This document shows positions 3,627-64,000 of a stretch of 64,000 bases of DNA, piece after piece. The stretch's first letter is position 1; every line of letters begins with the position of its first letter. This DNA comes from a bacterium HR11 (GTDB taxonomy: Bacteria > Acidobacteriota > HRBIN11): assembly GCA_002898535.1 (NCBI GenBank), contig BEHN01000001.1:261564-325563 (forward strand), given 5' to 3'. The position numbers were made by a program, and so were the translations under genes. Below the pieces are notes generated by a model. It saw only the letters and a list, made by a program, of their open reading frames with translations, was not told the origin of the DNA and searched no databases.

Positions 3627-3755
3627 TGCGGATGGGGCCGTGGGCTCATAGGTCATGACCATGAGCCATCAGCTACCAGCCATGAGCCGATATGGGTCTT
3701 GGGTTCCCTTCTCTTGCATCCTGCATCTTGCATCCTGTATCCTGCACCCTGAGGC
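3627..3755. repeat. Short tandem/palindromic repeats: family C (CATGAGCC/GGCTCATGG) followed by GCATCCT heptamer repeats
   Basis: gggctcataggtcatgaccatgagccatcagctaccagccatgagcc, then gcatcctgcatcttgcatcctgtatcctgcaccctg. A second family C block lies at about 22052-22140. Confidence 0.6.
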
Positions 3756-5337: not shown

Positions 5338-5367
5338 GGCCGTGAGGCGATAAGGCAGTTATTCTAA

Positions 5368-5627
5368 CAGAGCCGTTCGGTTGGTGAAAATCCGCGTGGA
5401 TTCGGCCTTTTCGACCCTTCGGGAAGGACGGTTTTCAAGCTTTGGCAGATAGGCAGTTCGGCAGGTGGGCAGATGGTCCCAAAAGCCCTGGGGCTGATCC
5501 TTGCCCACCCGGCTTCTATCTGCCTATCTGCCGACCTGCCCATCTGCCGGATGCTTGAAAAATCGTGCTTCCCGGGGGATGGGAAAGATTGTTCCGACGC
5601 CATTCTCACGAACCGAACGGCTCTGCT
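5368..5627. repeat. Repeat family A copy 1: ~260-bp MITE-like palindromic element with terminal inverted repeats
   Basis: The termini cagagccgttcggttggtgaaaat and attctcacgaaccgaacggctctg are reverse complements of each other. An internal palindrome has the arms ttggcagataggcagttcggcag and ctgccgacctgcccatctgccgg. Near-identical copies are at 15383-15627 and 57477-57744, with partial copies at 13629-13700 and 49913-50112. Confidence 0.8.
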
Positions 5628-5711
5628 AAGCTGGCTCCGATCAACCTATCGCCCGGCCTGCTAATCGCCTTACCGCCTTACTGCCTTATTGCCTTGTTCA
5701 TTTGACGGCTC

Positions 5712-7831: not shown

Positions 7832-7930
7832 TATAGACCATGGACCACAGACCTAAGGGTGGTCTGGTTTCTTCGTGCCAGGACGGGGAACGGAGTGAAT
7901 GGGGTCTGAGGTCTGTAGTCTATGGTCCCT
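7832..7930. repeat. Repeat family B copy (ATAGACCAyrGACC tandem units forming a palindrome)
   Basis: ctatagaccatggaccacagacc ... ggtctgaggtctgtagtctatggtcc. Other copies are at 15188-15327, 18603-18727, 32064-32206, 41459-41574, 55598-55862, 56428-56520 and 63900-63940. Confidence 0.7.
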
Positions 7931-7945
7931 TTTAGCCTGGGACCT

Positions 7946-10288
7946 TCACTGGGTCACGACTTCAAAGGGGACCTGCCGCCGGGCCACGCAAGGCGGGTCG
8001 GTCGTCCGGACCTCGACCTCCAGACGGTAGCCGCCCGCCGGGAGACCCCGGTAGGGAAGCAGGAAGAAGTTCGTGACGACCTCCGGGGCCGAGCCCTGGA
8101 ACTTCAAGGTCGTCGGGGGCGTCTCGTTGACCGGTTGGCCGTCGGCCCGATACAGACGGAAGAGGACCTGCATGGCCTCGGCCTTCAAAAGTGAGGCCGG
8201 GAGCAGGACCTGATAGAGGCCCCCGAGTTGGCCCTGGGGCGGGAAGTTCTGATACGGCGTCAGCCGGATCAGGTAGTTCTTGTACTGGGCATGGCCTCCG
8301 GACGTCCACTGAAGCTGGGGCACGCTCGTGTCGGCCTGCCGGATTTCGCTACTCAGGATGAAGGTCCCGACCTCGGGGCAACTCGTGGGCCGGACGTCGG
8401 GCCACTGCCACCGGGTCGCCATCGTCTTCCAGCCGCCGGCCTCGAGGACGCCCCACACGACGGTCACGCCGGGCTGTTTGATGGACAGGACCTTCGAGTA
8501 ATGGACGGCCGCCTGGGCCTTCTCCAGCTCCGGCAGGTCTTTCAAGGGAATCTGAATCGGCAGACGCTCGTAGCCCTTATCGACGACCTTGAAGTCGGCG
8601 TCCCGGACGACCCAGGCGACGTGGATCTCGTCGTACAGGACGTCCGGCGTCGTCGTCAGGGGCGTCAGGTGCCGAATCGGGACGGCCAGACTCATGTGGA
8701 GGTCGAGCGTCTGGGGCGTCCGCCAGAGATGCCGCAGAGACATCGGGACGTCCGGCCAGGGGAAGAGGTCCGCAAAGTCGAGGGCCGCCGCCAGCTGGCG
8801 GCTCACCCGGAGAGACCAGGGGATTTCGGCATAGGCCCTCCGGGTCCGGACCCTCAGGCCGGGCCGTCGGACCTTCAACTGAATCGAATGGTGCTTGATG
8901 CTGTCGGGAAGCGACCCGAGGTCAAAGCTGATGAGGTAGTAATGCCGAAAGTCGCTCCCGATTTGCTGAAAGAACTTGTCGAGACCCGTCGGCGACGTCC
9001 AGGCCACGCCGCCCGTCTGCTCGGCGATGCCCGCCATCTGGTACTGAATGTTCACGACGTTGAACTCGGCTGTGATCGTGGGCCGGATGTTCGTCTCGGC
9101 GCCCCACTCGGGATTCGGCTGGGTCGGATTGACCCAGTAAATGGTCAGACCCGCTGTGTTGGCCGAGCGGACGATTTCCTCATAGGTGCGAACCTCAGCC
9201 GAGTAGGTACTCAATTCTCGCTGGAACTCCTGCGCGATCGAAACCTCTACCGTGGGGGGAATGTCATGCCGCTGGACGTTCCATCGGAAGGCTTGGAGTG
9301 CATACGACAGGTAGTAATTCCCCGTCGGGTCGAAGCCCTCGGAGACGAATAAGACGCTCTTCCGACCCGGCACGTGGGCCAGAAAGTCAAAGACCGTCCG
9401 GAGGGATGCCTCCAGGTTCTGGGCGACCCGCCGGTCCTCGAGGCCCATGTTGCGGGCCGTATGGAAGGCATCTCGGGCGATCTGCTCGTAGCACATCTGC
9501 CGCCGGTCGAGGTCCTCATAGATGGAGCAACCCTCGAGCCGCTCCAAGATGCCGTCGAGGGTCGAAAGCCGACTGACCGTCCACGCGGCCCCCCGCACGC
9601 CAGCCCCGACCCGCTCCAGGGTCTTCAACACCAGGTCTACGTCTTGGGTCAATCCGTGCTCGACCCGAAAGCCCCCGCTGGCGTCCAGACTCACGAACAT
9701 GAAGTAAGCCCCCATCCGGTGGAGTTCCTCCAAGAACCGGCGCAGGGATTCCTTCAGCGTGGCCAGGGTCAGGCCGCCCGTGTGGGCCTTGTCATACAGG
9801 ATGATGAACGTATTGAAGGGCGTCCTCGGCGGCACGGCGCCCGCCTGCTGATAGGGTCGGACGACCTCGCCGGTGACCTGGACCGGCGGCGGTGCCTCCG
9901 GGGTGGCCGGGGGCTTTTCGACGGCGACGAGGTCCACGTAACGGACGGGATAGGCCTTCCCGTCGACGGTCAGCTCGAAATCTTCGGGCTTGAGGCCGTA
10001 TACGAATTGGCCCTTATCGTCGTAAACGAAGACCTCGACCTGCCCCAGACGGACCTCAACCCGAGCCTGGGCACCCGGGAAGGTGTAGACCTGCTCTTGC
10101 GGGGACGGCGGCTTCGGCGTCTCCTGGGCCGGGACCGGCAGGACGCTCCACAGCCAAAGGGACAGGAGGATGAGGCAGATAGGCAAGTGGGCAGGTGGGC
10201 AGGTGGGACGGTAAGGAGCGCCGGCCTCCGGCCCGTGAGAAGATGACGAGCCGGAAACGGCGCGACGATGGGATGGTATAGGCCTCAT
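7946..10288 (-). CDS. VWFA-domain protein of the Acidobacterial TIGR03436 type, secreted/membrane-anchored
   Basis: About 780 aa. The N-terminal signal/TM segment is LPICLILLSLWLWSVLPVPAQE, and the VWA-like core carries FVSLDASGG and LFVSEGFD motifs. The listed ORF extends to 10426, but the ATG at 10288 (MRPIPS) is the more plausible start. Confidence 0.65.
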   Translation of the reverse strand: MRPIPSHRRAVSGSSSSHGPEAGAPYRPTCPPAHLPICLILLSLWLWSVLPVPAQETPKPPSPQEQVYTFPGAQARVEVRLGQVEVFVYDDKGQFVYGLKPEDFELTVDGKAYPVRYVDLVAVEKPPATPEAPPPVQVTGEVVRPYQQAGAVPPRTPFNTFIILYDKAHTGGLTLATLKESLRRFLEELHRMGAYFMFVSLDASGGFRVEHGLTQDVDLVLKTLERVGAGVRGAAWTVSRLSTLDGILERLEGCSIYEDLDRRQMCYEQIARDAFHTARNMGLEDRRVAQNLEASLRTVFDFLAHVPGRKSVLFVSEGFDPTGNYYLSYALQAFRWNVQRHDIPPTVEVSIAQEFQRELSTYSAEVRTYEEIVRSANTAGLTIYWVNPTQPNPEWGAETNIRPTITAEFNVVNIQYQMAGIAEQTGGVAWTSPTGLDKFFQQIGSDFRHYYLISFDLGSLPDSIKHHSIQLKVRRPGLRVRTRRAYAEIPWSLRVSRQLAAALDFADLFPWPDVPMSLRHLWRTPQTLDLHMSLAVPIRHLTPLTTTPDVLYDEIHVAWVVRDADFKVVDKGYERLPIQIPLKDLPELEKAQAAVHYSKVLSIKQPGVTVVWGVLEAGGWKTMATRWQWPDVRPTSCPEVGTFILSSEIRQADTSVPQLQWTSGGHAQYKNYLIRLTPYQNFPPQGQLGGLYQVLLPASLLKAEAMQVLFRLYRADGQPVNETPPTTLKFQGSAPEVVTNFFLLPYRGLPAGGYRLEVEVRTTDPPCVARRQVPFEVVTQ

Positions 10289-10462
10289 GGAGCCACCTCC
10301 CGGGGTGCGGACGGACGAAACCCGGCACCCGATCCCTGGCACCTCCATTATAGCGCGGGGGGAATCGTGGGGGATTGGGGACCCGGCGTCGGGTAAGTGG
10401 AGGCGCATGGGGGCGCCGCCGTTCAAGGCGACGCCCCCAAAAGAGGGCCTTAGGCGTTCACG

Positions 10463-13628: not shown

Positions 13629-13700
13629 CAGAGCCGCTCGGTTCGTGAGAATGACATCAGAACCACCTTTCCCATCCCCCGGGAAGCACGATTTTTCAAA
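13629..13700. repeat. Repeat family A, truncated half-copy
   Basis: cagagccgctcggttcgtgagaatgacatcagaaccacctttcccatcccccgggaagcacgatttttcaaag matches the right arm of family A in reverse orientation. Confidence 0.65.
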
Positions 13701-14995: not shown

Positions 14996-15052
14996 TGTGT
15001 CGGGTGCTGGGTGTTCGGTCGGGTGCCCTGACCCGACACCCAGCACCGTCTC
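14996..15052 (+). terminator. Long near-perfect hairpin immediately downstream of fae (putative intrinsic terminator)
   Basis: gtgtcgggtgctgggtgttcggtcgggtgccctgacccgacacccagcaccg forms a ~20-bp stem starting 11 nt after the fae stop codon. Confidence 0.45.
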
Positions 15053-15187
15053 GTATCCCGCATCCCGTATCCCGCATTTCGTATCCGGGTGTCTCGGTCG
15101 GAGACTTTCTCTCATAGGGCCTTACCTGGGAGCATGGGCCTTTTCAAGCGTGGTGACGAAGTCCAGGGACGCATAACGAGAGCCAGT

Positions 15188-15327
15188 CTCATCAATCCGA
15201 CGGGACGGGGATCGGACCCTCGATATCCGACCCCAGACCGTAGACCACAGACCATAGACCATGGACCTTAGACCCCGTGGGTCTAAGCCGGTCTGTGGTC
15301 TGGGGTCGATGGTCGGATTTATGAGAT
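15188..15327. repeat. Repeat family B copy with terminal inverted repeats (tctcatcaatccgac / gtcggatttatgaga)
   Basis: Central ccccagaccgtagaccacagaccatagaccatggacc is mirrored by ggtctgtggtctggggtcgatggtc. Confidence 0.7.
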
Positions 15328-15382: not shown

Positions 15383-15627
15383 CAGAACCGTTCGGTTCAT
15401 GAGAATGGCGTCAGAACAATCTTTCCCATCCCCCGGAAAGCACGATGTTTCAAGCATTTGGCAGATGGGCCGTCGGCAGATAGGCAAGTCGGCCGATGGG
15501 CCGGTCGGGCGACTGCCCATCTGCCGACCTGCCGATTGGCCCATCTGCCGAGTGCTTGAAAAATCGTGCTTTCGTGGAGGTGCCCTTTCCGCTTCCCATC
15601 GCACTTCTCACCTCCCGAACGGCTCTG
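15383..15627. repeat. Repeat family A, full copy in inverted orientation
   Basis: Starts cagaaccgttcggttcatgagaatggcg and ends cacctcccgaacggctctg. The internal ggcagat(a/g)ggc... palindrome is conserved. Confidence 0.8.
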
Positions 15628-16423: not shown

Positions 16424-16528
16424 ATTCGGGAATTCGGGAGTTCGGGCATTCGGCCGTCGGGCCGTCGGGCCGTTCGGGCGCCGCCCGACTTCCCACGGCC
16501 GGACTGCTGAATTCCCGGTATCCTTCCG
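16424..16528. repeat. Repeat family D: tandem GAATTCCCG / TTCGGGC-type short repeats
   Basis: attcgggaattcgggagttcgggcattcggccgtcgggccgtcgggccgttcgggc ... gaattcccgg. Related blocks are at 22830-22875, 47168-47325 and 57796-57885. Confidence 0.6.
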
Positions 16529-17212: not shown

Positions 17213-18610
17213 GTGGCGACGTCCGTGGGGGAAAAGTATCTGTTCGTGACGGGAAAGCTGGCGGCCCCGGCGCTACGGGCGACCCTGGCGCAGGCCCATC
17301 TGCCCTTCGACTACGAGGTCGCCGTCATGAACATCAGCGTCGCCGCCCTGATGACACCGGAGTGGATCGCCCGCTTCTTGGAAGTCCCGCCGGGCGTCAC
17401 CCGCATCATGATCCCCGGCCTCTGCAAGGGCGACCCGCAAGTCCTGACGCAGAAGTTCGGGATTCCGGCCGAGAAGGGGCCGCCGGACCTGAAGCAGATC
17501 CCGAGCTACTTCGGTCGGGCCGGCGTGCGAGAGGACTACGGAGCGTATAACATCCGTATCTTCGCCGAGATCAACGACGTCCAGCGCCTGACTCTCGACC
17601 AGATCGTGACGATGGCCGAGTACTATCGGGCCAGCGGGGCCGACGTCATCGACCTGGGCCTGGCTTTAGACCGGCCGTGGGATGAAGGCCCGGCCGTCAT
17701 CGCCGAGCTGAAGGCTCGGGGCTTGACCCTCAGCATCGACACGATGAATCCCGACGAGATCCTCCGGGCCGACGCCGCCGGCGTCGACTATGTCCTCAGC
17801 CTAAACGGGTCGAACCTTTACCTGGCCGAGCGCATCCGGGCGACGCCCGTCCTGATCCCGGACAGCCCGGGCGACTTGGCGAGCCTGGAGCGGTCGATGG
17901 CCGTCCTGGAGCGTCTCGGCAAGCCCTACCTGGTGGACCCCATCCTGGAGCCGATCAACTTCGGATTTGCCGAGAGCCTGGCCCGCTACGTCGAGGTCCG
18001 CCGTCGGCATCCCGACGTCGAGATCCTGATGGGCATCGGCAACGTCACCGAGCTGACGGAGGCCGACACGACGGGGATGACGGCCTTGCTCATCGGCTTC
18101 TGCCAGGAACTGGAAATTCATCACGTCCTGACGACGGAGGTCATCCCCTGGGCCCGGGGCGTCGTCCGGGAGACGGCCATCGCCCGTCAGTTGATGTACT
18201 ATGCCAAACGGCACGGCGTCCTGCCCAAGCATATCGACAGCCGCCTCCTGACGGTCAAGGACGCCGAGTTCATGCCCTACACGGAGGCCGAGCTCCGTCA
18301 GCTCCAGGCTCAGGTCACGGACCCCAACTACCGTATCTTCGCCGACGCCGATTGGATTTACGTGTTCAACGCCGACCGCTTCGTCAAGGGCGTGGACATC
18401 AATGAAATCTTCGACCAGCTGGAGGTCGACGAGGCGACCCACGCCTTCTACCTGGGCAAGGAACTGATGAAGGCTTACATCGCCCGGTGCCTGCGCAAGA
18501 ACTACCGGCAGGAGAACCCCCTCGACTGGGGATACCTGACGTTTGACGAACCCCGGCGGGAACATGTCAAACTGACCCAGCGGGGCAAGGCGAAGCGGGG
18601 CGTGATATAG
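17213..18610 (+). CDS. Dihydropteroate-synthase-like (pterin-binding) protein with C-terminal DUF4346-like domain, H4MPT biosynthesis type
   Basis: 465 aa starting at a GTG. Pterin-binding DHPS-like core (GADVIDLGLA ... LSIDTMNPDEI ... GVDYVLSLNG) in the fae/mtd cluster. The same architecture occurs in archaeal and bacterial methanopterin biosynthesis loci. Confidence 0.7.
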   Translation: MATSVGEKYLFVTGKLAAPALRATLAQAHLPFDYEVAVMNISVAALMTPEWIARFLEVPPGVTRIMIPGLCKGDPQVLTQKFGIPAEKGPPDLKQIPSYFGRAGVREDYGAYNIRIFAEINDVQRLTLDQIVTMAEYYRASGADVIDLGLALDRPWDEGPAVIAELKARGLTLSIDTMNPDEILRADAAGVDYVLSLNGSNLYLAERIRATPVLIPDSPGDLASLERSMAVLERLGKPYLVDPILEPINFGFAESLARYVEVRRRHPDVEILMGIGNVTELTEADTTGMTALLIGFCQELEIHHVLTTEVIPWARGVVRETAIARQLMYYAKRHGVLPKHIDSRLLTVKDAEFMPYTEAELRQLQAQVTDPNYRIFADADWIYVFNADRFVKGVDINEIFDQLEVDEATHAFYLGKELMKAYIARCLRKNYRQENPLDWGYLTFDEPRREHVKLTQRGKAKRGVI

Positions 18611-18727
18611 ACCACGGACCTCAGACCACGGAGTCGGGACCCTTGACCTGGGTCGGCCGGAGGGCCCCGTCTTGGAATGTAGCGGCCCGAGCTCCCCAGG
18701 TCAGTCTGTAGTCTGTGGGCCACAGTC
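18603..18727. repeat. Repeat family B, degenerate copy
   Basis: atagaccacggacctcagaccacggagtcggg ... cagtctgtagtctgtgggccacagtc. Confidence 0.5.
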
Positions 18728-22051: not shown

Positions 22052-22140
22052 GCGATGGCTCATGGCTCGTATTAGCTCATGGGTCATAGCTCATGGCTCA
22101 TGGTCCCATGAGCTATCAGCCATGAGCTATGAGCCAACCG
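22052..22140. repeat. Repeat family C (GCTCATGG / CATGAGCT tandem-palindromic repeats)
   Basis: ggctcatggctcgtattagctcatgggtcatagctcatggctcatggtcccatgagctatcagccatgagctatgagcc. Confidence 0.6.
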
Positions 22141-22390: not shown

Positions 22391-22903
22391 GGGGAGAGCC
22401 GCACTCAATCATCACCACACCACATTTCGTCAGGGTCTCTCGCTTTCCATCCTCAGCGGTCGGGTCCCGCGCGGACCGTCGATGGAGCGGGTGTAGGACT
22501 TTCGGCAAAACGCCAAGGGCGGAGAGTCCGATACCCCGCTCGCCCCATCCTATCCAAGCCCCGCTCGCCTGAAAGTGGGGTCATGAGATAGACCCCGGAC
22601 CACCGACCGTTGGCCATTCGCTGAGGGGGTGGTCGCCCCGGGACGGATGCCCGCATGACGGCGGGCTCTGAATCGGATGACGCCGGCGCGACTGAGGACA
22701 CCGGACACTCCCCAAGAGGTCTCCTTCATTTCGGCCTATCGGCCCATCGGCCGACCGGCCCGACGGCCGGGCGGCCGGATGGCCGTGACCCCGCTCGGGC
22801 GAGCGGGGCTTGGATAAAAAAACTGCCCATCGGCCGACTGCCGGACTCCCGAATTCCCGGACGGCCGATCCTGAGACCCGGGACCTGATATCGGAGGCAT
22901 TGG

Positions 22904-32025: not shown

Positions 32026-32063
32026 TAAGCCATCTCATATAAAGGTGCCTGGAAGCGCTCGCA

Positions 32064-32206
32064 TCCATCCGACCATAGACCATAGACCACAGACCACGGA
32101 CCATAGACCGGCTTGGGCCCAGGAGCTCCATGGTCCATGGTCTATGGTCTATGGGCTGTGGTCGGATATCGAAGGTCCGATCCCGGTCCCGTCGGATTTA
32201 TGAGAT
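32064..32206. repeat. Repeat family B copy (terminus gtcggatttatgag)
   Basis: ccgaccatagaccatagaccacagaccacggaccatagacc ... ggtccatggtctatggtctatgggctgtggtcggat ... cgtcggatttatgagattgg. Confidence 0.7.
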
Positions 32207-32420
32207 TGGTTTTAGGCAGATGGGCCGATAGGCAGTCGGCGATTGGAAGTGCGAGGCGCGGAAAGATTGCGAATTGCGAATTTCAGATGGCGAATTCGCG
32301 ATCCGCCATTCGTATTCCGAAGTCCCTCAGTCCCTGACGTCCGATACCCATTCTGCATCCTGTATCCTGACTCATGACCTATTTCGTGCATCCTACAAGC
32401 TCACGCCAGGAGGGCTCACG

Positions 32421-41398: not shown

Positions 41399-41458
41399 AA
41401 CTCCCGAGCGATGTCGGCCCCCGGGTCGTCCCCCTATCCCGGGGGCCCCTTTATTAAA

Positions 41459-41574
41459 CTCATAAATCCGACCATAGACCACAGACCATAGACCTGCTTA
41501 GGCCCAGGTGGGCCTATGGTCCATGGTCTGGGGTCGGATGTCGAGGGTCCGATCCCGGTCTTATCGGATTCTTA
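41459..41574. repeat. Repeat family B copy flanked by 9-bp direct repeats (ttattaaac)
   Basis: ttattaaaCTCATAAATCCGACCatagaccacagaccatagacc ... cggtcttatcggattcTTATTAAACtacgg. The direct flanks could be a target-site duplication. Confidence 0.65.
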
Positions 41575-41722
41575 TTAAACTACGGCCTGCCGTCCTGTCG
41601 TCACGCCGTTACGAACCCTGAAAATCGTGCTTCCTAAAGGTCGCCGATCCAGCCCGCATGTCGCTTCCATCGAATGAAACCTACTGTCAATAAAGAGTCG
41701 GACGGGACCTGCGCTCCTCACG

Positions 41723-43615: not shown

Positions 43616-43918
43616 TCGCTATCCATGCTATGGCAGGACCGCGCCGGCGTCAAAGGGGCGATGCCCCTTAGATTGCGAATTCCGAATTGCGGATTGGGGA
43701 GTCCTGGTCGGGTAGGAGGGGATCCCTTCGGGACCCCGAGAGTCGTCCCGACGTCTATCTTGTCGGGCGCCGCCGGTAACGGCGGCGTCGAAAACTCGGA
43801 ACGCCGGCTGTCATACGGACGGCCTCTCCGCTGTCGGCTTTAAGGTACCGCATTCGCAATCTGAGGATGGATTTGCCTTTTCACGTCTTCCGACCCAAAA
43901 TAGAAAAGATGCATCCCG

Positions 43919-47167: not shown

Positions 47168-47325
47168 GGTACCTCGGAAATTCGGCAGTTCGGCAATCCG
47201 GCAGACGGGGGCCACGGAAGAAGGAGCGGAAGATAAGTTTTGTCAGGGCTTCGGTCTTGTGCCTGCTATGCTTATCTGCCGAATTCCGAACGGCCGAACT
47301 CCCAAGCTCCCGAATTCCCGTTCAC
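47168..47325. repeat. Repeat family D (GGAAATTCGGCAG / CCGAATTCCCG tandem short repeats) in the priA / SGNH-hydrolase spacer
   Basis: cggaaattcggcagttcggcaatccggcag ... ctgccgaattccgaacggccgaactcccaagctcccgaattcccg. Confidence 0.55.
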
Positions 47326-49907
47326 ACGAGCTCATAGGGGTCGACCTGCACCCGCAGGAAGTCCCGCCGGAAGGGAAGCCGCCCCAGGACGTCCCGGAGC
47401 GCCTGCCGTACGGCCCGCCGGTCCGTCGTCCGGATGAGGACGTGGTACCGGTACTTCCCCTGAAGCCGCCACAGGAGCGGCTGGACCGGTCCGTGGACCT
47501 GCGTCTGGGGGATCGACCGTTCCGTCAGGAGCTCCGTCAGCGTCTGCGCATACTGTCGGGCCAGGGCGTGCTCGGGATGGACGACCGTCAGCAGGACGAT
47601 GCTCGTGAAGGGCGGATACTGAAACCGCTGACGGTACGCCAGCTCCTCCCGGAAAAAGCCCTCGTAGTCGTGCTGACACGCATACCGGATAGCGTAGTGC
47701 TCGGGCCGGTACGTCTGGATGATGGCCCGGCCCGGTCGGTCCGCCCGGCCCGAACGACCGACGACCTGCGTGATGAGCTGAAACAGACGTTCGTGGGACC
47801 GAAAGTCCGGCAGGCCCGTGCTCGTGTCGGCCTCCAAGACGCCGACCAGCGTGACCCGCGGGAAGTGATGCCCCTTGGCGACCATTTGGGTCCCGACGAG
47901 GACCTGAACCCGGCCCTCGTAAAAGTCGCCCAGCAGTCGAAACAGCTCCCGGGGCCGGCTCAGCGTGTCCCGGTCGAGGACGCCGACCCGCACGTCGGGG
48001 AACTCTCGTTCGAGGAGGGCCTGGACCCGTTCGGTCCCGATGCCCGTGGCGATGAGGTACGGACGCTCGCAGACGGGACATCGCTTCGGGACCGGCTCCG
48101 TCGCATCGCAGTAGTGGCATCGCAGGACGCCGGCCTTCTTGTGCAAGACCATGTGGATGCTACACTGCGAGCATGTCAGGACGTGGCCGCAGGCCCGGCA
48201 CTGCACGAAGGGCGCATAGCCCCGACGGTTGATCAGGACGATGGCCGTCTCCCCCCGGTCCAGCGTCTCCCGAAGCGACGTCATCAGGAGGGGAGAGAAA
48301 AAGGGGTGACTCCCCCGAGCATAGGCGTCTCGCATGTCGACCAGGACGACCTCGGGCAGGACGGCCCCCGGGACGGCCCGCTGGGTCAACCGATACAGGC
48401 CGTACGTGCCCTGCCGGGCATGGGCATAGGTCTCGACCGACGGCGTGGCCGTCACGAGGAGCGCCACGGCGTTTTCGAATCGAGCCCGGGCGAGGGCCAC
48501 CTCCCGGGCGTTGTAAACCGGAAGCTCGTCTTGGCGGTACGACCCGTCCTGCTCCTCGTCGACGACGAGGACGCCGACGTCCTCCAGGGGCGCGAAGATG
48601 GCCGACCGGGCGCCCAAGACGATGCGGGCCTCGCCCGTCCGGATCCGCCACCACTCGCTCGTCCGCTGGGCCGGCGTCATCTCGCTGTGGAGAACGGCCA
48701 GGAGGTCACCAAACTGACGACGGAACCGCTGGGTCACGGCCGGAATCAGGGCAATTTCGGGCATTAGGACGAGGGCCGTCTTGCCCCGCCGGACGGCCGC
48801 CTCGATGAGGCGTAGGTAGACCTCTGTCTTGCCGCTCCCGGTCACGCCGTACAGGACGCCGGCGTGGAAAGTCCCGGCCTCGACGTACTTCTGAAGGGAC
48901 TCCAGGACGGCCCGTTGTTCGTCGTTGAGGACGACAGGGGCCTCGCTACCGACGGGGGCGTCCCAGACGATAGGACGGGGATGATATTGCACGTAAACCT
49001 GAATCCATCCCCGGGCGACCATCCGGCGGAGCCGGTCCCGAAGTCGCCGCTGGGCTACCTGGGGGTCAGCCCCGGAGGATTCGGCGTCCCGGACCTGCTC
49101 GGCCAGCTCCTCCAGCAGGACGTCCCGACCCGCCTGCGTCAAGTACGTCAAGATGTCCCGATAGGCTCCCGGCACCCGCTCGCCGTCCGCCGGCGGCCGC
49201 ACGAGATGGACGACCGTCGTCTTGGGGACCTTCGCCCGCTGATGGAGACGTTCCCGGACCTCGACCCAGCCCCGGGCCCGCAGGTACTGGACGGCCGCAT
49301 GGAGGCTCCTCGACCCGACGGCCCGCCGGACCTTCGGGAGCGTCGCCTTCCGAGCTTCGGCCACGTACAGAAGCACGCGCGCCCACAGGGGCAGACGCCT
49401 CTGCCGAGCGCCGGCGGCCCACTCGGCGGCGGCCTGCAGGCCCGCCGGCGTGATGCGGACCTCGGCCCGGTGGAGAGCGTGGAGGCCCGGCGGGATGGCC
49501 AGGTGGAGGTAAGCCCCTAAGGGCTGAAGGTAGTAGTCGGCCGCCCATCGGAGGAGGCGGACCAGCGTCGGCGGACACAGGGGCTGCGGGTCCAGGACGA
49601 GGTCGACGGGCTTGTACCGGACCCCCGGCCGGTCCAAGGGGGTCGCCTGGGGATCGACGACGTAGCCCGTCACCCGCCGGTTCCGCAGGGGCACGACGAC
49701 CCGCAGGCCGACCTGGGGCTCGACGCCCGCCGCCTCGGGCCACAAGTACGTCAGGTTCTCATACGGAAACTGCCGGGTCCAGACCTGCACGAGGCGGCCC
49801 GGGACCGTCGTCGGCCTCGGCTCCGCCTCGGCCGCCGGGACCCACAGCGCCGTGTCCGTCGTCTTTGGATTCGCCATCCGAACCTTCCGCTCACCCCGTC
49901 CGATCAA
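47322..49907 (-). CDS. priA: Primosomal protein N-prime (replication restart helicase PriA)
   Basis: A 3-prime-DNA-binding N-terminus, DEAH helicase core (GVTGSGKTEVYL ... VVDEEQD) and Cys-rich zinc-binding insertion (CRACGHVLTCSQCSIHMVLHKKAGVLRCHYCDATEPVPKRCPVCE). The start may be the downstream ATG at 49877. Confidence 0.9.
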   Translation of the reverse strand: MIGRGERKVRMANPKTTDTALWVPAAEAEPRPTTVPGRLVQVWTRQFPYENLTYLWPEAAGVEPQVGLRVVVPLRNRRVTGYVVDPQATPLDRPGVRYKPVDLVLDPQPLCPPTLVRLLRWAADYYLQPLGAYLHLAIPPGLHALHRAEVRITPAGLQAAAEWAAGARQRRLPLWARVLLYVAEARKATLPKVRRAVGSRSLHAAVQYLRARGWVEVRERLHQRAKVPKTTVVHLVRPPADGERVPGAYRDILTYLTQAGRDVLLEELAEQVRDAESSGADPQVAQRRLRDRLRRMVARGWIQVYVQYHPRPIVWDAPVGSEAPVVLNDEQRAVLESLQKYVEAGTFHAGVLYGVTGSGKTEVYLRLIEAAVRRGKTALVLMPEIALIPAVTQRFRRQFGDLLAVLHSEMTPAQRTSEWWRIRTGEARIVLGARSAIFAPLEDVGVLVVDEEQDGSYRQDELPVYNAREVALARARFENAVALLVTATPSVETYAHARQGTYGLYRLTQRAVPGAVLPEVVLVDMRDAYARGSHPFFSPLLMTSLRETLDRGETAIVLINRRGYAPFVQCRACGHVLTCSQCSIHMVLHKKAGVLRCHYCDATEPVPKRCPVCERPYLIATGIGTERVQALLEREFPDVRVGVLDRDTLSRPRELFRLLGDFYEGRVQVLVGTQMVAKGHHFPRVTLVGVLEADTSTGLPDFRSHERLFQLITQVVGRSGRADRPGRAIIQTYRPEHYAIRYACQHDYEGFFREELAYRQRFQYPPFTSIVLLTVVHPEHALARQYAQTLTELLTERSIPQTQVHGPVQPLLWRLQGKYRYHVLIRTTDRRAVRQALRDVLGRLPFRRDFLRVQVDPYELV

Positions 49908-49912
49908 GTTAG

Positions 49913-50112
49913 CACAGCCGTTCGGTTCGTGAGAATGGCGTCAGAACAATCTTTTCCATCCCCCGGAAAGCGCGATGTTTCAAGCATTCGGCAGGTGGGC
50001 AGTCGGCAGGTTGGCAGGTGGGCAGTCGGCAGATAGGCAGGTTGGCAGATGGGCAGTCGGCAGGTCGGCCGAGAGTCCCAAAAAGCCCTGCCATCCGGGG
50101 CTCTATCAGCCC
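49913..50112. repeat. Repeat family A, partial copy plus tandem GTCACTTCGTTACTTCGTCACTCC units
   Basis: It begins cacagccgttcggttcgtgagaatggcgtcagaacaatc. There follows a run of ggcag(g/a)t(g/t)ggcagtcggcag units, then gtcacttcgttacttcgtcactccgtcacttcatcgc. Confidence 0.65.
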
Positions 50113-50142
50113 AAGGCCGTGGATCGTCACTTCGTTACTTCG

Positions 50143-50916
50143 TCACTCCGTCACTTCATCGCTTACGGACTCCTGCACGGTTCGGGTCGGGAGCGTCGGT
50201 CCCCGGAGGTGAACGGGCTCGGCGGCGGCCCGGAGCCGGAGGTTCAGGGCCTCGACGAAGAGCGAAAAGCCCATCGCAAAGTAAATGTAGCCCCGCTCGA
50301 TATGGCGGCCCAGGCCCTCGGCGACCAGCATGACGCCGATCAGCAGGAGGAAGCTCAGGGCCAGCATCTTAACCGTCGGGTGCCGCTCGATGAACCGATG
50401 GACGGCCTCGGCGCTGACGAGCATGACGCCAATGGCCAGGACGATGGCCGTCACCATGACCCACACTTGGCGGGCCATCCCGACGGCCGTGATGACCGAA
50501 TCCAGGGAGAATACGACGTCGATCAGAGCGATCTGGACGACGACCCCCACGAGAGACCCCGTCTGCGGGGCCGACCGTGTCCCGGCGGCCCCCTCCAGCT
50601 TATCGTGAATTTCATACGTGCTCTTGGCGATTAAGAACAAACCGCCCAGGAGCAAGATGAGACTCTGTCCGGAGACGGGCGTGTCGAGAACAGGCAGGAC
50701 AAACAGGGGCTTTGTCAGCCGCATGATCCAGGTCAACGTAAACAGGAGCGCCAGCCGCGTGACGAGAGCGGCCAAGATGCCCAACCGGCGGGCAAGGGGT
50801 TGCCGGTCTCGGGGAAGCCGACCCGAGACGACCGAGATGAATACGATGTTGTCGATCCCCAGGACGACCTCCATGGCCGTCAGGGTCGCCAAGGCGATCC
50901 AAGCCTCGATTGTCAC
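50143..50916 (-). CDS. TerC-family integral membrane protein
   Basis: A GTG start at 50916 is preceded by gaggagagg. It reads VTIEAWIALATLTAMEVVLGIDNIVFISVV (TerC signature), with ~7 TM helices. The 404-aa listed ORF overlaps ribD and is rejected. Confidence 0.75.
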   Translation of the reverse strand: MTIEAWIALATLTAMEVVLGIDNIVFISVVSGRLPRDRQPLARRLGILAALVTRLALLFTLTWIMRLTKPLFVLPVLDTPVSGQSLILLLGGLFLIAKSTYEIHDKLEGAAGTRSAPQTGSLVGVVVQIALIDVVFSLDSVITAVGMARQVWVMVTAIVLAIGVMLVSAEAVHRFIERHPTVKMLALSFLLLIGVMLVAEGLGRHIERGYIYFAMGFSLFVEALNLRLRAAAEPVHLRGPTLPTRTVQESVSDEVTE

Positions 50917-53317: not shown

Positions 53318-54015
53318 GGGGGCGAACAGGTTTCGACGGAGGTGCGTGGGAGGACAGGCGGCATGCCGTGGGCCTGTCCGCTCGTCAACTGGACAGGGGC
53401 CAATAAGTGCCAACACCGATCTCGCCCTGGCGGCTTAACCGATAGCCGTCACGCCGCCAGACGGGCGCCCGTCCCGTCTGGGCCGGTGTCACATCACGGG
53501 CTCGGGCGCCGGGTGCGCCTCGGTCCCGGTGCCGAGATCGAAGGGGCTGGTCCTCGCCTTGACCCTGCCCGTCGGGGCCGGCGAGGACGAGAGGTAAAAG
53601 ACGGGCTAAGCATGTAGAAGCCTGTCCGACTGGCCTCCGGACGCGGGTTCGATTCGTGAGGGGTTATAGCGCGCAGGTTCGAAGGCTGTCAATTCGCGGC
53701 TATAACCCCGGAGTCGCCCCACATAGCAATATGTGGGTGAAAACGGGGCTCACATCGGCGAAGCCTACGGCCACCGAATGGCTATGGTAACGCCGAGGGG
53801 TCGGAAGGGGGCCAACCCCAGGCCGGCCCTGTAGAGACTCATCGGCCCGCCGGCCTGGACCGGGTGGGTGGGTCCGAGGAGCGTAGCGGATTGGGAAGAA
53901 ACTTGACGGCTACGCTAAGACGCCCCGCATCCTCGGTCCCGGGAGGGACTCGGGGATGAAGGCATAGTCCAGCCCAGTCCGAAAGGACTGGAGTGCTGTC
54001 CCGCCGCCTCCACCA
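53318..54015 (+). ncRNA. ssrA: tmRNA (ssrA) interrupted by a ~347-nt intervening sequence in the T-loop; mature length ~351 nt
   Basis: 5-prime GGGGGCGAACAGGUUUCGACGGAGG (acceptor and D-analog region). Tag ORF gcc aac acc gat ctc gcc ctg gcg gct taa encodes ANTDLALAA at 53409-53438. The 3-prime region GACGGGCUAAGCAUGUAGAAGCCUGUCCGACUGGCCUCCGGACGCGGGUUCGAU ends at 53651. UCCCGCCGCCUCCACCA resumes at 53999. The acceptor stem GGGGGCG/CGCCUCC has a G3-U wobble (Ala identity). Confidence 0.85.
53652..53998 (+). other. Intervening sequence within the tmRNA T-loop (group-I-intron-like; alternatively a processed IVS)
   Basis: The 5-prime exon ends with U and the insert ends with G. It contains R-like (GUAGAGACUCA) and S-like (CAUAGUCC) elements in the right order, flanking a P8-like hairpin (gcgtagcgg ... 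ggctacgc), plus a GNRA-capped hairpin (cagtccgaaaggactg) just before the terminal G. No clean P1 pairing with a U-G at the splice site could be found. Confidence 0.4.
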
Positions 54016-55595: not shown

Positions 55596-55597
55596 GT

Positions 55598-55862
55598 AAG
55601 ACCATAGACCATGGACCATAGACCACGGACCACGGACCCCCAACGATAGACCGGGCCGGGCGGACCGAGCCTCCCCGTTGTGGAGAAGGAGTCTCATAAA
55701 TCCCCCCTACAGGGGAAGACCTGGAGATGGGTTCTCAGCCATCCTCTCGAGACGAGGCGCTCCCCCTTGGCCCAGTCAGGTCTAAGGCCTATGGTCCATG
55801 GTCTATGGTCCATGGTCTGACATGGAGAGTCCGACCCCGGTCTCATCGGATTGATGAGACCG
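55598..55862. repeat. Repeat family B, large composite copy (two palindromic arms around a unique core)
   Basis: gaccatagaccatggaccatagaccacggaccacggacc ... gtctcataaatcccc ... ggcctatggtccatggtctatggtccatggtctgac ... ggtctcatcggattgatgagaccgc. Confidence 0.7.
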
Positions 55863-55921: not shown

Positions 55922-56434
55922 ATGGTGGAGCGACCATACTGTGTGGCCGGTATCGACCCCCACAAGGACTTCATCGCCGTGGCCGTCCTGGCCCCCGACC
56001 GGGTCGTCCGGGTCGGCGTGATCCGGTGCGAGCCCTTCGTCCGCCTGCGACGGCGACTGGAACGTATCCTGGCCGACGTCCGCTACGTCGGCATCGAGTG
56101 GCCCTATCTGGGCAAGAGTCCCCACAGCTATGCGACGGTCCTGGAAACGGCGGCGACCGTCCGGACGCTCGTCCGCCTGATGGGGATCCCGAGCGTGCGT
56201 GTCCGGGGGAGCCAGTGGATGCGGGTTCTCCGGGTCCGACGCCGAACGCGAGCTTACCTCAAGCAGGCGGCCCGGCGCCTGGCCCGGCAGGCCACTCGGC
56301 GAAGCCTGACCTCGGACCAGAGCGACGCCGTCTGCATCGGCCTCTGGCTCCTGGACCGCCTGGTCGTCCACGGCCGCCTGGACCCACCCGTCCCCCTCCT
56401 GGAACGCACGGGCCTCCGGCCTGGGGGTCCATAG
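55922..56434 (+). CDS. RuvC-like (RNase H-fold) Holliday-junction-resolvase family protein
   Basis: 170 aa with acidic residues at RuvC-equivalent positions (AGIDPH, VGIEWPY, SDQSDAVCIGLW). It is isolated from any ruvAB. Confidence 0.45.
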   Translation: MVERPYCVAGIDPHKDFIAVAVLAPDRVVRVGVIRCEPFVRLRRRLERILADVRYVGIEWPYLGKSPHSYATVLETAATVRTLVRLMGIPSVRVRGSQWMRVLRVRRRTRAYLKQAARRLARQATRRSLTSDQSDAVCIGLWLLDRLVVHGRLDPPVPLLERTGLRPGGP

Positions 56435-56508
56435 TGCAGACCATAGACCACGGGCCCCAGACCTCTACGGTCCGTGGTCTATCGTCCATGGTCGATGGTC
56501 TTGGGTCC

Positions 56509-57390
56509 ATGGTCCATAACGTGCCTGCGCTGTCGGCTTGGCGGGCGGCCCTGGAGGCCCTGGTCCGTCGATTTCCCCGGCCGCAGACGCCCGGGGACGA
56601 CCCCCTGGCCTTCGCTTACCGGTATGACGACCCCCACGACCGGACGGTCGTCGCCTATCTCGTCAGCTTTCTGGCTTTCGGCCACGTGCAGGCCATCGCC
56701 CGGGCCGTCGAGCCCCTCCTTGACCGCCTCGGCCCCCGACCGAGCCGGGCCCTCGTCGAGGCCGCCCGGGCCGACCTGCGTCGGTGGGTCCACGGGTGGC
56801 GCTATCGCTTCGTCCCGGCCGAGGCCCTCTACGGGCTCCTCGCCTGGATTCAAGACCGGCTTGCGCGATGGGGGTCGCTGGAAGCGTACTTTCGGGCGGC
56901 AGTCGAGAGGTCGCCTTCCCTGCGGGACTTTGCCGAGGCTCACGGTCAGGCCGGTCGCCGATTCTTCCGCCGTCACGTCTCGAGCGTATCCCCGGTGAAG
57001 GCCCGGTTTCTCTTCCCGCTCCCGCCTCGGAGCGCCTGCAAACGTTTGGCCCTGTTTGTCCGGTGGATGACCCGCCGGGCGCCGCCGGACCTGGGTCTTT
57101 GGGACTTCTGGCCCCGGGCCTGGGTGTTCGTTCCCCTCGACACCCACATGGCCTTTCTGGCTCGTTTGTGGGGCTGGGCGGACCGGCGGGCCCCGGACTG
57201 GGCCTTCATGGAGCAGGTCGCTTCCGTCTTGGCCGCCCTCTGTCCGGAAGATCCGCTTCGGTACGATTACGCCATCGCCCACCTGGGGATCCGTCGTCTC
57301 TGTCATCGCCGGCCGGAGCTTCGGCGGTGTGGGGTATGTCCCATGCGGAGCGTTTGCCCCTATCCGGCTGGAAGCGATCCGTGTGGGTGA
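56509..57390 (+). CDS. DUF2400/TIGR02757-family protein with C-terminal 4-Cys motif
   Basis: The ATG at 56509 reads MVHNVPALS. The listed 497-aa ORF's N-terminus runs through repeat DNA and over the upstream gene and is rejected. C-terminal CHRRPELRRCGVCPMRSVC gives C-x8-C-x2-C-x5-C. Confidence 0.6.
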   Translation: MVHNVPALSAWRAALEALVRRFPRPQTPGDDPLAFAYRYDDPHDRTVVAYLVSFLAFGHVQAIARAVEPLLDRLGPRPSRALVEAARADLRRWVHGWRYRFVPAEALYGLLAWIQDRLARWGSLEAYFRAAVERSPSLRDFAEAHGQAGRRFFRRHVSSVSPVKARFLFPLPPRSACKRLALFVRWMTRRAPPDLGLWDFWPRAWVFVPLDTHMAFLARLWGWADRRAPDWAFMEQVASVLAALCPEDPLRYDYAIAHLGIRRLCHRRPELRRCGVCPMRSVCPYPAGSDPCG

Positions 57391-57476
57391 AAAGGCCCGA
57401 CGGGTGGGTGAAAAGGCCCAGCGGCCAGGGGCGAAGAGCCCAAGGCATAGAGCCCAAGGCAGAGCAACTGTCTTGA

Positions 57477-57744
57477 CAGAGCCGTTCGGTTGGTGAAAAC
57501 CCGCATGGATTCGGCTTTTTCGACCCTGCGGGAAGGACGGTTTTCAAGCTTTGGCAGATAGGCAGTTCGGCAGATGGGCAGATGGTCCCAAAAGCCCTGG
57601 GGCTGATCCTTGCCCACCCGGCTTCTATCTGCCTATCTGCCGACCTGCCCATCTGCCGGATGCTTGAAAAATCGTGCTTCCCGGGCGTTGGGAAAGGCCG
57701 TCCCGACGCCATTCTCACGGGCCGAATGGCTCTGCTAACTTTCC
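57477..57744. repeat. Repeat family A, full copy (near-identical to 5368-5627)
   Basis: cagagccgttcggttggtgaaaacccgcatggattcggc ... cgacgccattctcacgggccgaatggctctg. The internal ~200 bp is almost base-for-base identical to copy 1. Confidence 0.85.
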
Positions 57745-57795: not shown

Positions 57796-57885
57796 CCCGG
57801 CCGGCCCCCAATGCCCGGGTTCCCGAACTCCCGAATTCCCGGATTGCCGAACTCCCGAATTCCCGAATGGTATAATCGGACTTCC
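57796..57885. repeat. Repeat family D tandem array (CCCGAATTCCCG / CCGAACTCCCG units) overlapping the histidine-kinase upstream region
   Basis: cccgggttcccgaactcccgaattcccggattgccgaactcccgaattcccgaatgg. Confidence 0.65.
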
Positions 57886-63872: not shown

Positions 63873-64000
63873 TGTTGGGTGTTGGGTCTTGGATGCTGGG
63901 TGCCCGGTAGAAAGACCACAGACCACCGACCCTCGACCTGTTTCGGAAGCCTGGTTCGCTTCGTCTCGAGACGGGTATTCCGATGACTCCGTCAGGTCTA

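Follow-up and report, generated by a model that had tools for sequence, protein, structure and literature searches.

The window analysed here, a 64,000-nucleotide stretch of the genome of 'bacterium HR11' (thermophilic, uncultured and unclassified), has a G+C content of 65.5% and carries housekeeping and C1-metabolism genes (uvrD, fae, mtdB, leuD, P460, dnaG, RNase E/G, gltB). Its DnaG protein has 100% identity to the HR11 DNA primase. Between these genes lie hairpins whose arms are head-to-tail arrays of 7-nt units with the pattern GACCAYR, here called family B. Both TRF and a period-7 scan gave a period of 7 for these intergenic arrays, and the period-7 scan located clear GACCAYR-heptamer hairpins at seven loci in the window (7832, 15188, 18603, 32064, 41459, 55598 and 56428), each forward GACC-core array being partnered by an inverted GGTC-core array. 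In all units five positions are invariant and two vary solely by transition; ATAGACC is the most frequent form, while GTAGACC is seen a single time among the arms listed. When up to 2 mismatches were allowed, ATAGACCAYRGACC gave 42 matches in the 64-kb window against 1.0 expected, and the 14-mer CTCATAAATCCGAC gave 6 matches against 0.31 expected. Copies measure 95-270 bp with loops of ~10 to 140 nt, and they are non-coding, lying between genes as called by GC3 bias. At least nine other families of 7- or 8-nt units also occupy intergenic DNA of the window, some of them in divergent promoter spacers.

An initial sequence-only reading of this DNA had counted eight array loci. Seven of these were clear, the eighth (63900) was completed from an identical contig, and a ninth, weak site was added at 22588. 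The same reading had placed the elements at almost every operon boundary, which was overstated, as family B occupies ~9 of ~40 intergenic regions, but which comes nearer the truth if the other tandem-unit families are counted. Extension of the window by ~9 kb with identical Logan contigs completed the 63900 copy and added one degenerate arm and zero new composite copies. The individual copies, with the z-scores of their folds, are as follows.

15186..15327, + strand: most complete composite copy, both termini intact; TIR-L 15186-15201 (GTCTCATCAATCCGAC), 30-nt subterminal module 15202-15231, arm ~15229-15274, loop, arm ~15283-15314, TIR-R 15312-15327; fold -81.0 kcal/mol, z -8.0.
32060..32206, - strand: composite copy, inversely oriented, with a subterminal module; TIR-L 32191-32206 is intact and TIR-R 32060-32073 (CGCATCCATCCGAC) degenerate; arms 32071-32109 and 32125-32166; z -6.9.
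41460..41571, - strand: composite copy inside a direct repeat, with the subterminal module and the conserved loop motif; TIR-R is present as its core (41459-41472) and TIR-L is cut to ATCGGATTC (41563-41571); arms 41470-41494 and 41511-41535; z -6.1.
55597..55862, - strand: composite copy, the loop of which is enlarged by ~140 nt and holds a solo third terminus (55690-55706); arms 55597-55638 and 55779-55820; module plus TIR-L 55821-55862; z -6.6.
7832..7930, no strand assigned: simple heptamer hairpin with neither termini nor module; 45-nt loop between the arms 7833-7853 and 7903-7927; z -3.7.
18605..18727, no strand assigned: simple degenerate heptamer hairpin; arms 18607-18627 and 18698-18727; z only -1.2.
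56428..56520, no strand assigned: simple heptamer hairpin; arms 56436-56463 and 56469-56517; z -3.2.
63905..64000, no strand assigned: simple heptamer hairpin cut at the window end, complete in Logan contig L154:2425-2555; z -4.1.
22588..22640, no strand assigned: weak, short family-B-like hairpin, ATAGACC CCGGACC ACCGACC ... GGTGGTCGCCCCGGGAC.

Alignment of four loci (15186+, 32206-, 41571- and 55862-) showed that they have a common chassis, the parts of which are 79-89% identical. It begins with the terminus RTCTCATMAATCCGAC (~16 nt), followed by the subterminal 30-nt module GGGACCGGGATCGGACCYTCGAYATCCGAC, which folds into a small hairpin of its own, a heptamer arm, a loop with the motif CYTGGGCCYAAGCMGG, a second arm and the inverted terminus. 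The inverted termini that had been reported for several copies were confirmed in part: for the RTCTCATMAATCCGAC terminus (n=6), both ends are intact in one copy, at 15188, and a single intact end is left in three, whereas five hairpins have none. The 55597 copy is without a terminus on the side of the rng gene. The five simple hairpins consist of the arms alone, with unrelated loops, and as they are without the terminus they may differ in origin. Since termini, module and loop motif are common to otherwise unrelated loci, they indicate that a defined sequence reached these sites by copying, instead of arising at each of them, and the dispersal of a defined family B element is well supported. 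The number of heptamers per arm ranges from ~3 to 7 among copies with the common chassis; this variation on a constant chassis indicates that slippage acts as well, and resizing of the family B stem by slippage is also well supported.

A second repeat of the same genome, family A, is an element of ~265 bp with inverted termini RCAGAGCCGTTCGGTT... (~16 nt or more) around a central hairpin built from GGCAGNTN octamers in tandem; of the 7 termini observed, 6 have TA next to them. TA-flanked inverted termini are a signature of the IS630/Tc1 type. The combination of transposon-like ends and a tandem-unit hairpin follows the same plan as the composite copies of family B and, by analogy, supports the reading of family B as a MITE.

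It could also be proposed that nothing moved, and that each locus is a microsatellite which grew its arrays in situ by slippage and intrastrand template switching between the arms. According to Mrazek 2007, as summarised in PMC4679880, long simple-sequence repeats of prokaryotes are most often heptamers, and polymerase slippage is put forward to explain them. In addition, copies differ in unit number, as do strains in the case of other unit families, arrays of GACCAYR have been found in many phyla, and five family B copies are without defined ends. Against this, one unit is found at 9 loci, every time as inverted pairs, and non-repetitive termini, a 30-nt module and a loop motif are common to four copies. 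The arms are also not mirrored at their variable positions, contrary to the prediction of templated copying; complementarity between arms at the Y/R positions was at the level of chance (30/46 observed, 30.6 expected), which argues against templated copying of arms and against strong selection for pairing. Family B was furthermore not found in the sampled relatives, which are equally prone to tandem arrays. We therefore regard an origin purely by growth in place as improbable. CpG deamination was considered as the source of the Y/R variation and rejected, as the counts of TA (21), CA (17), TG (11) and CG (6), made by hand, fit independent marginals.

The sample of relatives consisted of ~150 kb of redundant loci around two genes, with DnaG 84-87% identical and the Fae protein identical. 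BLAST of families A and B against this ~150 kb gave no match, and no array of the family B unit was present in it. Gene order downstream of fae is kept in the relatives, and the orthologous spacers contain unrelated tandem 7/8-nt hairpins in which strains differ by whole units; such whole-unit differences between close strains are direct evidence of slippage in these other unit families. The spacer between the cytochrome P460 gene and dnaG is 65 bp long with a plain hairpin in a relative, versus 324 bp in HR11, but as its flanks could not be aligned to the relative, the 65-bp spacer is not a true empty site. Logan contigs from DRR101361-DRR101364, four read sets of one culture series, were 100% identical to the window, and no strain polymorphism at family B was found among these four assemblies. 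Short-read contigs of HR11 end within family B arrays, which fits a multi-copy repeat. In the JGI metagenomes, a pattern of TIR-L plus module had 0 matches, and a pattern of TIR-R plus the first units had 1 match, by chance, within a coding region. As it was not found in the sampled relatives or in the JGI metagenomes, family B appears to be young and, as far as sampled, lineage-specific.

The copy at 41459, which follows the cytochrome P460 gene, is the only one inside a significant direct repeat, the two copies of which are as follows.

41451..41460, + strand: left direct repeat TTATTAAACT, 10 bp, which is also the T-rich tail of the P460 terminator-like hairpin 41428-41446.
41572..41581, + strand: right direct repeat TTATTAAACT, 10 bp.

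This repeat had been noted from the letters as 9 bp long and is genuine. It extends to 10 bp, and the 9-mer TTATTAAAC has two occurrences in the 64 kb, at 41451 and 41572, even with 1 mismatch allowed. In shuffles it gave p≈5e-4, the sole significant flanking repeat when 8 family B and 4 family A copies were tested. As the left repeat is the T-tail of the hairpin closing the cytochrome P460 gene, the family B copy sits in a terminator tail. The claim that the repeat is a target-site duplication implying transposition is supported only in part, since the flanked copy is truncated at both ends (the outer 2-3 nt are missing from one terminus and ~8 nt from the other), while flanking duplications were found neither at the intact copy, 15186..15327, nor at any other family B copy. 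A 7-bp repeat around the 15188 copy, AGGGACG, was rejected as a target duplication; it is offset from the termini, and its p≈0.04 is the value before correction for 12 tests. Transposase-mediated insertion with a 9-10-bp duplication is plausible, resting on one imperfect case. The contrast originally drawn, transposition rather than slippage, is a false choice, as slippage is evident too, but its first half gains from the dispersal seen in the common chassis, from the lack of family B in the sequence sampled from relatives and from one real direct repeat.

A Pfam scan of 21 window proteins found no transposase. The terminus CTCATAAATCCGAC has 9/14 matches to the IS10 outside end CTGATGAATCCCCT, over a short length and in a comparison chosen post hoc, and the solo terminus CTCATAAATCCCCC has 11/14 matches to the same end, again in a comparison chosen post hoc. 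The IS10 end was confirmed beside an IS4-family transposase on plasmid R100. IS10 makes 9-bp duplications, and the family B terminus seems to reach 2 nt further out (RTCTCAT) than the IS10/Tn10 end. Because IS10 was picked post hoc among many IS families, the resemblance would not survive correction and serves as a lead, not a test.

The scarcity of target duplications is reminiscent of REP/REPIN-type elements, hairpins that are recognised as single-stranded DNA and spread by a REP-associated tyrosine transposase (RAYT) without such duplications. Family B resembles them in being made up of abundant extragenic palindromes 3' of genes, most copies of which are without a target duplication, and in some units that read GTAGACC, reminiscent of the GTAG head of REPs. 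However, the stems of family B are built of tandem 7-nt units, where a REP is one imperfect palindrome of 20-40 nt; the most frequent unit begins ATAG and not GTAG, the composite copies have true terminal inverted repeats, which are absent from REPINs, and the scan of window proteins turned up no Y1-transposase domain. It is thus unlikely that family B is a REP/REPIN-type element.

Single strands of family B were predicted to fold with energies of -44 to -133 kcal/mol, and the folding was similar on either strand. The z-scores were -3.2 to -8.0 in 7 of the 8 copies folded, the exception being the 18603 copy (z -1.2, not significant), and for 6 of 8 complete copies no shuffle of 200 folded as well. 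G-U pairs in the hairpins showed no strand bias consistent between loci. An Rfam search of the whole window at the gathering threshold assigned no family to any family B copy, the sole match being tmRNA at 53326-53656.

All family B copies are located 3' of a gene, often 0-40 nt past the stop codon. At least three copies (7832, 41459 and 63905) lie between convergent genes and the remaining ones between co-directional genes, and both orientations of the element are present. The 7832 copy is the whole spacer of the convergent uvrD gene and a gene of 826 aa, and CCCTTTT comes directly after it. The DUF6513 gene takes its TAG stop from the first unit of the 18605 copy, which is located within a likely operon and has TTTTT after it, and the stop codon (TAG) of a 170-aa gene is overlapped by the 56428 copy; a relative has another C-terminus where these window stop codons lie in repeat units. 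The 63905 copy is nested within a hairpin of a different unit, TGTTGGG, with convergent genes on both sides. Of 7 copies, 4 have a T-rich sense-side tail, taken as 4 T or more within the 10 nt that follow the stem (the background mean is 1.7), and 3 have none. Position and tails are suggestive only, and would be compatible with family B acting as a terminator or stabiliser of transcripts.

If such a role were the reason for their spread, the copies would be host-selected structural RNA or DNA elements, serving as bidirectional terminators or mRNA 3'-end stabilisers in a GC-rich thermophile and multiplied by selection, not by selfish mobility. This would agree with the position of every copy and with the T-rich tails, and also with the relatives, whose orthologous spacers hold unrelated tandem-unit hairpins at the same positions; GACCAYR arrays of other phyla face gene 3' ends at a ratio of about 2:1 (75 facing 3' ends versus 40 facing 5' ends among the matches listed, by a rough ORF analysis). 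On the other hand, changes in one arm are not compensated in the other and G-U pairs show no strand bias, so that there is no sign of selection on RNA structure. The 41459 copy adjoins a terminator-like hairpin that is already complete, copies stand in both orientations, and divergent promoter spacers also hold other tandem-unit families. As there are only ~6 divergent spacers in the window, the lack of family B at promoters is not significant. We consider spread by host selection rather improbable.

The regularity of the units could also point to a protein. The omega protein of pSM19035 binds heptads in direct and then inverted order, and the GACCA core of family B, recurring at a 7-bp spacing in the same arrangement, might form an operator- or centromere-like site for a protein of the ribbon-helix-helix type. 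The five invariant and two transition-only positions of each unit would suit such a site. However, at least nine different unit families are found in one genome, loop length ranges from ~10 to 140 nt, the arrays are located at gene 3' ends and not at promoters, and there would be dozens of chromosomal sites. We consider protein-binding heptad arrays a very improbable explanation.

A genome collection was scanned with (GACCAYR)3GACC, which gave at least 120 loci in many phyla, several genomes having 2-5 loci each; the heptamer unit is therefore not lineage-specific. Among the matches listed, an inverted GGTC-heptamer array (at least 3 units, within 250 nt) was present near 22 of 105 non-edge arrays. 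By record titles, the arrays with an inverted partner among the 125 listed arrays belong to about ten phyla, namely, in the matches listed, Chloroflexota, Bacteroidota, Actinomycetota, Acidobacteriota and Verrucomicrobiota, with Planctomycetota, Methylomirabilota, Armatimonadota, Omnitrophota and 'Deltaproteobacteria' as further ones. The family B terminus and module were found in none of the listed arrays of other phyla. Such recurrence raises the idea that the heptamer hairpin itself propagates, as a foldback-type class that seeds at hairpins or terminator tails and then grows by 7-nt slippage, with many unit families per genome and GACC-core units recurring in ~ten phyla; the MITE chassis of families A and B would then merely have captured hairpins. 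We hold this to be rather doubtful. If true, taking the hairpin as the unit would describe a general, unrecognised de novo origin of long terminator-like stem-loops in bacteria.

The explanation that we favour, with confidence slightly better than even, is that family B is a lineage-specific, non-coding, MITE-like repeat of the foldback type in 'bacterium HR11', which was dispersed by transposition and the stems of which were resized by slippage. The chassis version would have been copied into further intergenic locations as a small transposon of the non-autonomous, miniature kind, by a transposase that is presumably encoded elsewhere in the genome and is perhaps IS4/IS10-like, to judge from how the terminus is shaped and from the one 9-10-bp duplication. 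After insertion, replication slippage would add or remove 7-nt units in each arm independently, and stem length would drift. Older copies may have shed their termini and remained as bare heptamer hairpins. Copies would persist chiefly just 3' of stop codons, where some of them, in combination with neighbouring T-rich tracts, probably stop transcription in both directions or protect 3' ends.

The family has practical consequences as well. Its arrays fragment short-read assemblies of the lineage, with contigs ending inside them, and it reshapes gene 3' ends, two stop codons of the window being supplied by repeat units. In a single element of a single genome it combines the dispersal of a defined inverted-repeat sequence with microsatellite-type slippage, two processes usually discussed apart. 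If mobility were confirmed genome-wide, family B would give bacteria a clear equivalent of foldback transposons, and could partly explain the frequent inverted pairing of heptamer arrays, the abundance of which in prokaryotes has long been known. Among the systems compared below, MITEs, REP-like elements, heptamer arrays and inverted heptamer pairs are already known; what appears to be new is a heptamer-stem hairpin set in a defined inverted-repeat chassis, together with a second family of the same design, with TA-flanked ends, in the same genome.

Several known repeats share features with family B. The cyanobacterial STRR heptamers and TAACTGA repeats comprise several heptamer families per genome, and are intergenic with a patchy phylogenetic distribution. 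The STRR heptamers were reportedly described by Mazel in 1990, and one of them, STRR2, reads GACCAAT on its other strand, which is close to GACCAYR. The STRR and TAACTGA arrays are mostly one-directional, in contrast to the inverted pairs of family B; TAACTGA repeats precede start codons, and among ~170 sets a single inverted pair was reported (MacGregor 2015, PMC4679880). Inverted pairing is common in the GGGAATC heptamers of Xanthomonas, which form intergenic tandem arrays; often two of these converge and can fold into stem-loops or cruciforms, as in family B. A genome has 70-75 of these inverted pairs, and related genomes differ in array length (Rehm et al. 2015, PMC4692102). That unit, however, is G-rich and G-quadruplex-prone, its host is a mesophilic gammaproteobacterium, and the terminal inverted repeats, subterminal module and flanking duplication of family B are not described for it (PMC4692102).

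REP, BIME and REPIN sequences with RAYT are likewise abundant, lineage-specific extragenic palindromes downstream of genes and without target duplications, but a REP is one short imperfect palindrome headed by GTAG, and terminal inverted repeats are absent from it (PMC3116915). Bacterial MITEs, such as IS630-type MITEs, Correia/NEMIS and ERIC, share with family B a small size, a non-coding nature, dispersal in intergenic DNA, terminal inverted repeats (in family B, intact at both ends in one copy), a long hairpin and a position often 3' of genes (PMC3184786). Unlike in those elements, the interior of family B is a variable stem of tandem heptamers, and a duplication is found in only 1 of 4 composite copies. 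The eukaryotic Foldback (FB) transposons have long inverted arms of short tandem repeats, with a variable loop and variable arm length. Family B is like them in each of these respects, having arms of short tandem repeats and a loop and arms of variable length; FB transposons differ in being eukaryotic, with arms of hundreds to thousands of bp, and have no relationship to family B in sequence or host.

The TAG stop codons of two genes lie inside family B units, that of the DUF6513 gene at 18605-18610 and that of a 170-aa gene at 56428-56434. The DUF6513 C-terminus reads ...RGVI* in the window versus ...RGVAT* in a relative, indicating that the family B element has replaced the end of the gene. 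The terminus region GGTCTCATCGGATTGATGAGACC of another family B copy (55838-55862) is a perfect palindrome with a 9-bp stem. In L154, a Logan short-read contig identical to the window that completes the copy cut at the window end, a hairpin of TGTTGGG / CCNAACA units encloses the family B hairpin (L154:2393-2579, window 63873 onward). Taken with the loop insertion in the copy at 55597-55862 (55639-55778), this nesting gives a hint of a preference for hairpin loops or tails as insertion sites.

At least nine more families of tandem 7- or 8-nt units occupy intergenic DNA across the window, frequently as inverted pairs, with units such as CATGAGC, TGCATCC, TTCCCGAA, GCCTTACT, TCGTCACT, GGCCGTCG, ATTGCGA and TGTTGGG. 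Example arrays are listed below with two other features of the window.

Further tandem-unit arrays and other features (window positions)
3654-3751, array
5667-5695, array
15052-15086, array
16424-16479, array
22055-22136, array
22731-22785, array
32266-32301, array
43671-43700, array
47174-47320, array
50124-50157, array
57806-57868, array
63873-63902, array
53326-53656, tmRNA gene (Rfam, 125.5 bits)
7946-10426, - strand, 826-aa ORF, strongly coding by GC3 (0.84)

The tmRNA was the sole Rfam match at gathering threshold in the window, and no Pfam domain was found in the 826-aa ORF.

Orthologous spacers in relatives (loci L138, L139 and L144) hold other tandem-unit hairpins, for example of GTGACGGN and TCCTGCA units. 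Because strains differ there by whole units (e.g., L138:13488-13817 versus L139:13489-13809), these spacers provide direct evidence of slippage and fast turnover of tandem units in the relatives. Among the matches listed from the genome collection (L003-L122), GACCAYR heptamer arrays were found in many phyla (e.g., L012, L021, L068, L099, L113 and L118); approximately one-fifth of those listed have an inverted GGTC-heptamer partner, forming long hairpins directly beyond ORF ends. Dyadobacter fermentans alone accounts for at least five of the array loci, with two-tier stems of GACCATR units inside and GC-rich heptamers outside.

Family A, the second element family of the window, is represented by the following copies.

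Family A copies (window positions)
5367-5629, copy
57476-57738, copy
15383-15610, copy
49906-50100, copy
13629-13699, partial copy

Logan short-read contigs of the same organism stop within family A or B arrays (window 41488, 55790 and 57505, and the ends of contigs L149 and L154), and repeats of both families break up assemblies of this lineage. A fragment at 41612-41640, CTGAAAATCGTGCTTCC, located approximately 40 nt from a family B copy, resembles the family A segment TTGAAAAATCGTGCTTCC that adjoins the octamer array. The family A element is approximately 265 bp long, with 94.7% identity between two copies in the window, and tandem GGCAGNTN octamers make a hairpin at its centre. Its inverted termini read RCAGAGCCGTTCGGTT..., and TA adjoins six of the seven seen in the window; such TA-flanked inverted termini are the signature of IS630/Tc1-type MITEs.
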